Shown here: in pieces, positions 24,201 through 27,200 of the stretch
How positions within the stretch are numbered: position 1 is the first letter of the stretch
How the letters are laid out: each line of letters begins with the position of its first letter
From: Escherichia coli
GTDB taxonomy: Bacteria; Pseudomonadota; Gammaproteobacteria; Enterobacterales; Enterobacteriaceae
NCBI RefSeq assembly: GCF_024502345.1
Contig: NZ_JALDNN010000001.1
Direction: 5' to 3' (one strand)
Length of the DNA stretch: 64,000 nucleotides
Program-made: the position numbers

Positions 24201-27200
24201 ATTAAGGAAGCCAAGAATTAATGCGCCGATCAACGTCCCAACAATGCGACCTTTTCCGCCCGCCAGACTCGTACCGCCCAGAACCACCGCAGCAATAGCA
24301 TCCAGCTCATAGCCAGTCCCCGCCGTGGGTTGTGCGGAGGAGAGACGCGCCACTTCAATGATCCCGGCCAGTGATGCCAGCAGACCACAAAGAGAATAGA
24401 CGATGATTTTGATTTTATTGACGTTGATACCAGAAAGACGCGTTGCCGCTTCGTTGCCGCCCAGCGCGTAGATGTAACGCCCCAGACGCGTGTGATGCAG
24501 CATGTACCAGGCCGCGAGGAAGACAATCCCCATGATCCAGACTGGCGTCGGTACGCCCAGCGGACGACCAATACCAAACCAGCCAAACAGATCGGCGTTC
24601 TCAGTAAAGCCGGTATTCACTGGGCTACCGTTGGTATAAACCATGGTCACGCCGCGCAGTAAAAGCATCATAACCAGCGTAGCGATAAACGCCTGGACGC
24701 GACCTTTCGCTACAATCACTCCGGTTACCGCACCAATTGCGGCACCTAACGCGAGAGCGGCAGCGACAGCCACCAGCGCATTGACTTCAATGCCGACGAT
24801 AGATGCAGCAACTGCGCCGGTTAGCGCCAACAGAGAACCTACCGACAAGTCTATGCCCGACGTCAGGATCACCAGCGTCATCCCGACCGCCATAATGGCG
24901 TTCACCGAAGTTTGCTGGAGAATATTGAATAAGTTATTGATGGTGAAAAAGTTCGGGCTTAACGTCGAGACAATCGCGATCAGCACCAGCAGAGCGATAA
25001 GCGATTTCTGCTCCATCAGCCACGCTTTCGTGAAATAACGGCGACCAGAGACAGTCTGGGTTGTCATTTTTTTACTCCTGATTCACGCGATTAAGCTTGC
25101 CCACAGCGGCAGCCATTAACACTTCCTGGGTGGCCTGCTCACGAGTAAATTCCCCGCTGAGATGCCCTTCATGCATGACGATGATACGATCGCTCATGCC
25201 TAATACTTCTGGCATCTCCGATGACACCAGAATGATGCTCAAGCCATCGGCTTTGAACTGGTTAATCAGTTGATAGATCTCTTTTTTCGCGCCGACATCT
25301 ACGCCACGGGTAGGCTCATCAAGGATCAATACTTTGGGCCGTGTCATCAGACCGCGGGCAATCGCCACTTTTTGCTGATTGCCACCGGAAAGCAGACCAA
25401 TTGCCTGTTCCATCGACGGAGTTTTCACATTAAACAGACGAATGAAATCACTCACAGCCTGCTGTTCATCGGCATGCTTCAAACTGCCGCCAGCGCGGCT
25501 GAAGTAGCGCAGCGCTGTCAGCGACATGTTCTCTTTTACTGACATGCCCAACACTAAACCGTCACGTTTACGGTCTTCGGAGATATACACAATGCCGTTT
25601 GCCAGGCCATCCTGCGGTGAACGGGTAACGACTTCATGCCCATCCAGGGTGACGTAACCGCTGGTGCGCGGCAGTGCGCCGTAGAGCACTTTCATCAGTT
25701 CGGTACGACCTGCGCCCATCAAACCAGAGACGCCAATAATTTCGCCTTTGCGTAAAGTAAAAGAGACATCGTTAACGCCAGGTCCGCAGAGATTATCGAC
25801 TTTCAGGCGGATATCTCCCGGCGCTTTGTCCAGGTGCGGATATTGATCTTCCAGCTTGCGACCCACCATCATCTCAATCAGCGAATCTTCGGTCAGTGAT
25901 GCCACTTCGCGCTCAGCAATAAATTGTCCGTCACGAAAAACGGTAACGTCATCGCAAATCTCGAAGATTTCTTTCATGCGGTGGGAGATATAGACAATAC
26001 CGCGGCCTTGCGATTTCAGCTCGCGGATGACGCGGAACAGGGATTCGGTTTCGGTATCGGTCAGCGCATCGGTCGGTTCATCCATAATGATGACTTTCGA
26101 CTCAAAGCTCAGCTCTTTGGCTATTTCAACCATTTGCTGGTCACCGATGGAAAGATCGCCCACCAGCTTGTCGCTTTTAAAGCGCAGGTTAAGTTTAGCC
26201 AGCAATTTATCCGCTTCGGCATACATGGTTTTCCAGTCAATTTTGCCAAAGCGATTAACAAACTCACGACCGAGGAAAATGTTTTCGGCAATGGTTAACT
26301 GCGGGATCAGGTTCAGTTCTTGATGGATAATCCCAATCCCGGCTTCCTGGGAAGATTTCGGCCCGGTAAATGTCGTTTCTTTCCCCAGCCATAAAAGCGT
26401 ACCGGCATCGCGAGTATAGATACCAGTAAGCACTTTCATCATGGTGGATTTACCCGCGCCGTTTTCGCCCACCAGCGCCATCACGCGGCCCGGATAGACA
26501 TTTAACGCAGCGCCCGAGAGGGCTTTTACGCCCGGGAAGGCTTTATCGATGCCTTTAAGCTGAAGTAATGCTTCCATGACGGCCTCAGAACGTCACGCCA
26601 GCACAGAGAATGATATTCGCATACGGAGAACATTCTCCGCTGCGAATTACCGCCTGACTTTCTGCGGTTTGTTGTTTGAATTGTTCATGCGTGGTGTAAC
26701 GAATTTCAATGGTATTTCCCTGGTGTTTTTGCAGCTGCTCAAGGTGAGTGAGCAACGTTTCGTGGAGTTGCGGATTATGTTGTTTGATCTCTTCCGCGAT
26801 AATGGCCGCCTCGACCTGCATTTCATTTGTGACGACGCCCAGCACCTGCATAAAAGAAGGTACACCCTGGGTTAATGCCATATCGATACGCGTTGTACTT
26901 TTGGGGATGGGTAACCCAGCATCACACACCACCAGCGTATCGGTATGTCCCAGACGGGAGATCACCGATGAAATATCAGAATTAAGAACGGTGCCTTTTT
27001 TCATTTTTTTCTCCATCAGCGAAACGTTTCGCTGACCCGCAGTTTAATCCTGACTGAGTTGGGAAAACCATCGTGACGTTACGGAAATGTGATCAACCTC
27101 GAAACGTTTTACATGGTGATTAACCATGAAAACAAAAACGCCCCCTTATGAAGAAAGGAGGCGTCTGGCGTTAGATTTCGACCTGAGTACCCAGTTCGAT

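Follow-up and report, generated by a model that had tools for sequence, protein, structure and literature searches.

The rbs promoter of Escherichia coli: one RbsR operator and a probable remnant of a second one at the CRP site

The rbs control region of Escherichia coli is best read as a CRP-dependent promoter of class I type, repressed by RbsR at one main operator (O1) and carrying, further upstream, a second site that would be the remnant of another operator (O2); we assign this reading a probability of about 0.85. The region lies within a stretch of 64,000 nucleotides of the E. coli chromosome (hereafter, the window), which includes the kup-rbsDACB region and in which the rbs operon is encoded on the minus strand. 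The one-operator description of rbs comes from E. coli, which appears to be exceptional in this respect: the other Enterobacteriaceae and Proteus carry an intact putative second operator over the CRP site. O1 and the control of rbs by RbsR and CRP are textbook knowledge, and the system described here is a known one, to which we add a modest evolutionary footnote.

The gene order around the O1 palindrome was kup-rbsD-rbsA (1.2 kb, 100% identical to an annotated E. coli genome). From rbsD upstream, the region was characterized by the following features:

26585-27004, minus strand: rbsD, whose protein begins MKKGTVLNS.
27002-27014, minus strand: Shine-Dalgarno sequence GGAG (27014-27011) and rbsD start codon ATG (27004-27002), assigned from sequence; TGGAG is conserved.
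27016-27035, minus strand: O1 (rbsO), main operator for RbsR; TCAGCGAAACGTTTCGCTGA is perfectly palindromic over 20 bp, with its dyad centre at 27025.5.
27041-27046, minus strand: putative -10 hexamer TAAACT; 59 of 82 promoters had TAAACT or TACACT at this position.
27064-27071, minus strand: block ATGGTTTT, a putative weak -35 region (GGTTTT, separated from the -10 hexamer by 17 bp).
27085-27106, unstranded: CRP-type 22-mer AAATGTGATCAACCTCGAAACG, with TGTGA at 27088-27092, TCGAA at 27099-27103 and its centre at 27095.5.
27096-27115, minus strand: O2 relic, the putative remains of an RbsR-type operator; the dyad is centred at 27105.5, and that of O1 lies 80 bp downstream.
27126-27166, minus strand: intrinsic terminator of kup, a 12-pair stem followed by a T run; kup ends at 27171.

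The kup terminator forms the upstream boundary of the rbs control region. A scan of positions 26800-27300 against Rfam returned merely sub-threshold noise, located over this terminator. An in-frame ATG upstream of the rbsD start codon (27016-27014) was not a conserved feature in the promoter alignment with other genera.

Conservation was assessed in 82 promoters from Enterobacterales: 76 from outside Escherichia (75 from Enterobacteriaceae and that of Proteus) and six from Escherichia (this window, another E. coli, E. albertii, E. whittamii, and two further clades). The comparison was based on 80 rbsD loci from species representatives of the Enterobacteriaceae, with RbsD proteins 86-99% identical. 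The search for RbsD homologues returned relatives with at least 82% identity alone, hence no outgroups; the outgroups (Proteus mirabilis, several Vibrio, Photobacterium, and Aeromonas) were chromosomes filed as plasmids in PLSDB.

RbsR is a LacI-family repressor of rbsDACBKR that is freed from DNA by ribose. Mauzy and Hermodson reportedly observed, in 1992, an RbsR footprint on a perfect dyad across the transcription start, and ribose-sensitive EMSA has been reported for the rbsD operator of Serratia. The earlier note on this DNA had described a perfect 20-bp palindrome 12 bp upstream of rbsD and recognised in it the form expected for the RbsR operator. The palindrome indeed ends at 27016, 12 bp before the start codon at 27004, and its identity was borne out by comparison with the published operator: the RbsR-operator complex has been solved at 2.1 Å with the oligonucleotide rbsO, GTGGGTCAGCGAAACGTTTCGCTGATGGAG (2025 preprint, bioRxiv 10.1101/2025.04.02.646877), and 29 of the 30 bases of this 30-mer agreed with positions 27040-27011 of the minus strand, the sole difference being a flanking SNP. 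The O1 palindrome is thus the known RbsR operator. A full-text literature search for GCGAAACGTTTCGC gave this crystal-structure preprint as its sole match.

TCAGCGAAACGTTTCGCTGA occurred only once in the 64-kb window with three mismatches permitted, where shuffled sequences led us to expect none, and it was the longest perfect palindrome present, the runners-up being 14 bp long. Palindromes of at least 20 bp arose in 7 of 200 Markov-1 random sequences of equal size; the length of O1 is by itself modestly unusual, and the case is carried by position and conservation. O1 conforms to the pattern of an RbsR operator, in which a palindrome of even length, 16-20 bp, is centred on CG and contains the core AAACGTTT / CGAAACGTTTCG. 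Its 16-bp core, AGCGAAACGTTTCGCT, was unchanged in all 81 promoters from Enterobacteriaceae and was also present in Proteus. Moreover, O1 begins 6 nt past the conserved -10 hexamer, a position at which it would block the promoter if the start site is correctly placed; it would then extend over the start point of transcription and some 20 nt at the 5' end of the rbsD leader. An RbsR dimer bound to O1 would cover the start region and block initiation, and ribose would release it.

The O1 palindrome might additionally act in the mRNA, as a 7-bp leader hairpin just 5' of the Shine-Dalgarno sequence that would stabilise the transcript or tune its translation. This hairpin had a predicted energy of -9.3 kcal/mol (z = -2.4 versus shuffled sequences) and, O1 being invariant, it would always be present; however, any transcribed perfect palindrome would fold in this way, protein binding fully explains the invariance of O1, there were no covarying changes, and the transcription start is itself a predicted one, with no Rfam match at this place. 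We therefore consider such a second role unlikely.

Upstream of the -10 hexamer, the layout was that of a CRP-dependent promoter. The 22 bp at 27085-27106 contained a CRP-type core of the TGTGA-N6-TCACA form, and TTCGA-N6-TCACA was present in all 82 promoters, with GATCACA invariant. The promoter-proximal half of the site matched the consensus at 10 out of 10 positions (AAATGTGATC; GATCACATTT in E. coli). The distal core, TCGAA/TTCGA, is a weak half that matched at 3 out of 5 positions, with G and A kept. In 64 of the 82 promoters, 55 nt separated the centre of the site from the 3' end of the -10 hexamer downstream of it. If transcription starts 7 nt past the -10 hexamer, at approximately 27034/27033 and hence in the first bases of O1, the CRP centre would be located at about -61.5. 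The suggestion that TGTGA may belong to a CRP site is thus supported by a conserved arrangement whose distance to the -10 hexamer is fixed and class-I-like, in an operon listed among the CRP-activated, RbsR-repressed (incoherent) feed-forward loops (rbsDACBKR; PMC6121374). The rbsD promoter has also been described as responsive to cAMP (PMC4304618).

The (A)TGGTTTT block in the putative -35 region was invariant or nearly so in Enterobacteriaceae, and Proteus exhibited TTGTTTTCC at the same place. A scan with the sigma-70 consensus revealed no full promoter upstream of rbsD, the -35 region being far from consensus. As a poor -35 region is expected of a CRP-dependent promoter, this absence of a match was not counted against a promoter.

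The earlier note had also pointed to a recurrence of the operator core at about 27100-27110, next to TGTGA. The exact 10-mer CGAAACGTTT was indeed found again at 27100-27109, and all three of its matches in the window were located in the rbsD promoter, with 0.21 expected. The distance of 65 bp given for this second site is right as an edge-to-edge gap (64 nt) and wrong as a distance between centres, since the dyads at 27025.5 and 27105.5 are separated by 80 bp. The CRP centre (27095.5) is only 10 bp from the O2 dyad.

In each of the 82 promoters, the core AAACGTTT occurred exactly twice, with a spacing of 79 bp in 46 promoters, 80 bp in 29, and 78 bp in 7. All 76 promoters from outside Escherichia exhibited an intact O2 palindrome, CGAAACGTTTCGA, at the orthologous position, 78-80 bp upstream of O1, so that the second site of E. 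coli corresponds to a full operator in related genomes. The base preceding CGAAACGTTTCGA was G or T, giving a perfect 14-mer, TCGAAACGTTTCGA, in some genera, and the spacers flanking O2 were less than 75% conserved in the comparison outside Escherichia. GTTTCGA, the half of O2 nearer the promoter, ran into TTCGA-N6-TCACA of the CRP site in every one of the 82 sequences. In contrast to the other genera, the six Escherichia sequences all had TAAAACGTTTCGA at O2, and the form GTAAAACGTTTCGA was confined to them.

Proteus mirabilis, whose RbsD is 60% identical, exhibited the same layout, namely O2, the CRP site, TTGTTTTCC, TACTAT, and O1, with a spacing of 78 bp between the operators. Since Proteus shares the full layout, the intact O2 is likely to be ancestral and the Escherichia form a derived decay. 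Two RbsR-type sites were also found in Vibrio species, with other spacings and with one site half-degenerate; in Vibrio tritonius, the half-degenerate site GAAAACGTTTCGCTGA stands beside a perfect one.

Could the second site be unrelated to RbsR, that is, a chance resemblance within a CRP site or a target of PurR, Cra, or GalR, whose sites may have a AAACGTTT core? Seven of the ten repeated bases do lie within the CRP 22-mer, AAACGTTT is also the core of PurR sites, and rbsD is a predicted PurR target in Vibrio (PMC1635313). However, the distal half, with GCGAAA, lies outside the CRP 22-mer, and CRP alone cannot account for its invariance. In all 76 promoters from outside Escherichia, this half was (G/T)CGAAAC, identical to that of O1, which rules out both chance and a CRP-only origin. 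Moreover, the intact half CGAAAC is of the RbsR type and differs from the half-site consensus of PurR (GCAAAC) and that of Cra (TGAAAC), and the PurR box was matched at only 8-9 of 16 positions. PurR, Cra, and GalR were consequently rejected as candidates for this site, and we regard an origin unrelated to RbsR as highly improbable. Judged by sequence comparison, the second site is not a chance match; it is a remnant related to an RbsR-type operator.

A different question is whether O1 and O2 cooperate through DNA looping in the manner of lac O1 and O3, with the spacing between them defining the loop. The spacing is tight, at 78-80 bp in all 82 promoters, but promoter geometry suffices to explain it in full: O1 is tied to the start, and O2 to the CRP site, at about -61.5, with which it is fused. 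This distance also corresponds to approximately 7.4-7.6 helical turns, which would place the dyads on roughly opposite faces of the DNA. Moreover, RbsR is handled as a dimer (bioRxiv 10.1101/2025.04.02.646877), and a chimera joining LacI's DNA-binding domain to the RbsR core exhibited no dependence on operator spacing. A looping auxiliary operator of the lac O2/O3 type was rejected on this indirect evidence and seems very unlikely.

In E. coli, the O2 relic has kept its proximal half, GTTTCGA, whereas its distal half is GTAAAAC, versus GCGAAAC in the other genera. The changes affect core positions -5 (G to A) and -6 (C to T). Over 12 bp, CGAAACGTTTTA at the second site differs from the operator core by two mismatches, its distal half being TAAAAC, so that only one of the two half-sites of the CGAAAC|GTTTCG core is present. 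Matches as good as this 12-mer are not rare (6 in 64 kb versus 3.8 expected), so it is the exact 10-mer, together with location and orthology, and not a motif score, that makes the second site significant.

We also scored the window with a position weight matrix (PWM), for which the O1 and O2 sites of other genera were dereplicated and used as the training set. O1 obtained 31.4 bits and intact O2 sites about 28.7 bits; the E. coli O2 obtained 2.7 bits, although this nearly invariant training set may over-penalise its two changed positions. A score of 2.7 bits is the same as that of the best chance site in the window, located inside atpI. The RbsR-like sites at 26751-26762 inside rbsD and at 37932-37951 inside atpI were dismissed as chance matches.

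These data bear on the proposal of the earlier note that the second site could be an auxiliary operator. Its relation to an operator is borne out by the full palindrome found outside Escherichia; its role as an auxiliary operator in E. coli is doubtful, judging from a score of 2.7 versus 31.4 bits. In such a role, the site would be a working low-affinity operator at which RbsR, using one good half-site and the AAACGTTT core, would compete with CRP and add a modest repression at high RbsR occupancy. Several observations are compatible with this: the exact 10-mer is kept and has every one of its window matches in the rbsD promoter, the site ranked third by PWM among ~64,000 window positions, and V. 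tritonius pairs a similar half-degenerate site with a perfect one. The 16 nt ATGTAAAACGTTTCGA were, moreover, common to all six Escherichia sequences, whereas the spacers nearby varied, and a 37-nt stretch covering CRP and O2 was identical in 5282 of the 5309 matching E. coli genomes.

On the other hand, two distal core positions have been lost. In LacI-family complexes, positions -5 and -6 distinguish RbsR sites from those of PurR and Cra. The score does not exceed that of the chance site in atpI, and the conservation of the proximal half is already explained by CRP. Divergence within Escherichia is too low to prove, by comparison, selection on the decayed distal half, although the invariance of the relic could reflect residual function instead of low divergence. 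Curated annotation gives a single RbsR site for rbsDACBKR in E. coli (PMC3505978). Literature searches for ChIP-exo, DAP-seq, or second-operator accounts of RbsR returned nothing specific, and the searchable literature, which excluded key primary papers, yielded no O2 binding data for any species. Overall, a working auxiliary operator in E. coli seems rather unlikely, and weak binding of RbsR to the relic is possible but doubtful to a similar degree.

Our preferred reading, that of a relic, suggests the following history. O2 would have been a full palindrome in the ancestor shared by Enterobacteriaceae and Morganellaceae. Its intact half GTTTCGA would have doubled as the weak CRP half TTCGA, so that RbsR and CRP would compete for the same bases; with the major-groove bases of TTCGA shared, their binding would be mutually exclusive. 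The result would be a double lock, in which O1 stops RNA polymerase, O2 keeps the activator off, and ribose releases both. In the lineage of Escherichia, O2 would then have lost two core positions of its distal half, leaving one strong operator and a relic, whose surviving half has probably been kept for its membership in the CRP site. That RbsR occupies O2 in other genera, that CRP is excluded, and that the E. coli relic is bound weakly or not at all are predictions. We put forward only tentatively, and as rather less probable than its opposite, the full scenario, in which RbsR had two operators in the ancestral enterobacterial rbs promoter, the second so fused with the CRP site that the repressor evicted the activator, and in which the Escherichia lineage specifically disabled this second lock and retained just a half-site of it.

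If this scenario is true, CRP could sit on the repressed E. coli promoter, which might make it leakier or faster to induce, and a residual weak competition between RbsR and CRP would be possible in E. coli. It would also represent a datable and testable loss of an operator that rewired a textbook sugar operon. When the E. coli model or synthetic parts derived from rbs are moved to Salmonella, Klebsiella, or Enterobacter, two RbsR sites should be expected, with a probable competition between repressor and activator.

With regard to what was already known, O1 has the same sequence and the same place as rbsO of E. coli rbsDACBKR, with no difference between them. The accessible parts of published rbs descriptions mention a single operator; here, a second site is also present. 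Second RbsR sites have very probably already been catalogued in silico: the RegPrecise regulog of RbsR in Enterobacteriales comprises 17 sites in 11 regulons, a count that is consistent with second sites such as O2 in several genomes, and more than one site was reported in ~20% of the operons regulated by LacI-family transcription factors (Ravcheev et al. 2014, PMC4052901). The accessible part of that article mentions neither the overlap of O2 with the CRP site nor its decay in Escherichia. No account of either was found in the literature searched, which excluded key primary papers, and a full-text search for the CRP/O2 sequence gave no match.

The closest likeness is with the lac operon, in which a strong LacI-family operator at the start is accompanied by a weaker, degenerate upstream copy beside a class I CRP site (-61.5). 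However, lac O3 (centre at -82) abuts the CRP site, whereas rbs O2 (centre at about -71.5) would overlap a CRP half-site. Moreover, lac O3 works by tetramer-mediated looping, while RbsR is dimeric and gave no indication of looping, and competition with CRP would therefore be expected for rbs. The arrangement also resembles that of CytR, a LacI-family repressor located at the activator's site in a CRP-dependent promoter, with repression aimed at activation. CytR occupies the interval between tandem CRP sites, and its binding is cooperative with that of CRP; in rbs O2, unlike in this cooperative system, operator and CRP half-site share bases, which would imply mutual exclusion.

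An in-frame ATG lies at 27014-27016 in the window, within the Shine-Dalgarno region of rbsD, and shares the last base of the RbsR operator O1. Taken from this codon, the mechanical rbsD ORF is 143 aa long, versus the annotated 139 aa. In other genera, the corresponding position is occupied by a GTG that is out of frame, and this ATG was therefore rejected as the true rbsD start.

In the interval that separates the O2 relic, the decayed second RbsR-type operator, from the kup terminator, an inverted repeat, CATGGT-N5-ACCATG, was observed at 27112-27128, directly upstream of the relic. 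This repeat is probably fortuitous, since its sequence was found among Escherichia sequences only in the window strain and in one other locus (L002), and was absent from the remaining ones (TCACGATG / TCTCGATG). Elsewhere in the window, two weak RbsR-like matches were detected, with scores at chance level for 64 kb:

26751-26762, within the rbsD coding sequence, AGCAACGTTTCG
37932-37951, within the atpI coding sequence, GAGTCGAAACGTTGCTCGGA

The window also contains the following ORFs:

33352-33810, asnC-like
33900-34343, mioC-like
34722-36611, mnmG-like
36675-37298, rsmG-like
37903-38295, atpI-like

Based on the order and sizes of these ORFs, the non-coding gap at 34344-34721 should be the putative chromosomal replication origin, oriC.

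Among the compared loci, the contig CACSKA010000004.1 (L063) is titled Chryseobacterium sp. 18061. Its rbsD promoter is enterobacterial and differs very little from the one in Citrobacter sp. 18056 (L062); the assembly is probably mislabelled or contaminated. Four PLSDB records of 1.7-4.9 Mb, which served as outgroups in the rbsD promoter comparison, were filed as plasmids (L081, L083, L084, and L085; NZ_OL790811.1, NZ_CP050465.1, NZ_AP026896.1, and NZ_CP073579.1, respectively). These are evidently chromosomes or chromids, and such records in a plasmid collection would skew plasmid statistics.

Two RbsR-type sites were also observed in Vibrio rbsD promoters, with different spacings. In Vibrio campbellii (L083, 240-500), both sites are perfect copies of ATCGAAACGTTTCGAT and lie 127 bp from each other; in Vibrio tritonius (L086, 380-420), one site is perfect and the other half-degenerate, with a spacing of 32 bp. 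In the Aeromonas rbsD promoter, the motif differs (GCAACCGGTTGC / TAACCGATTG).
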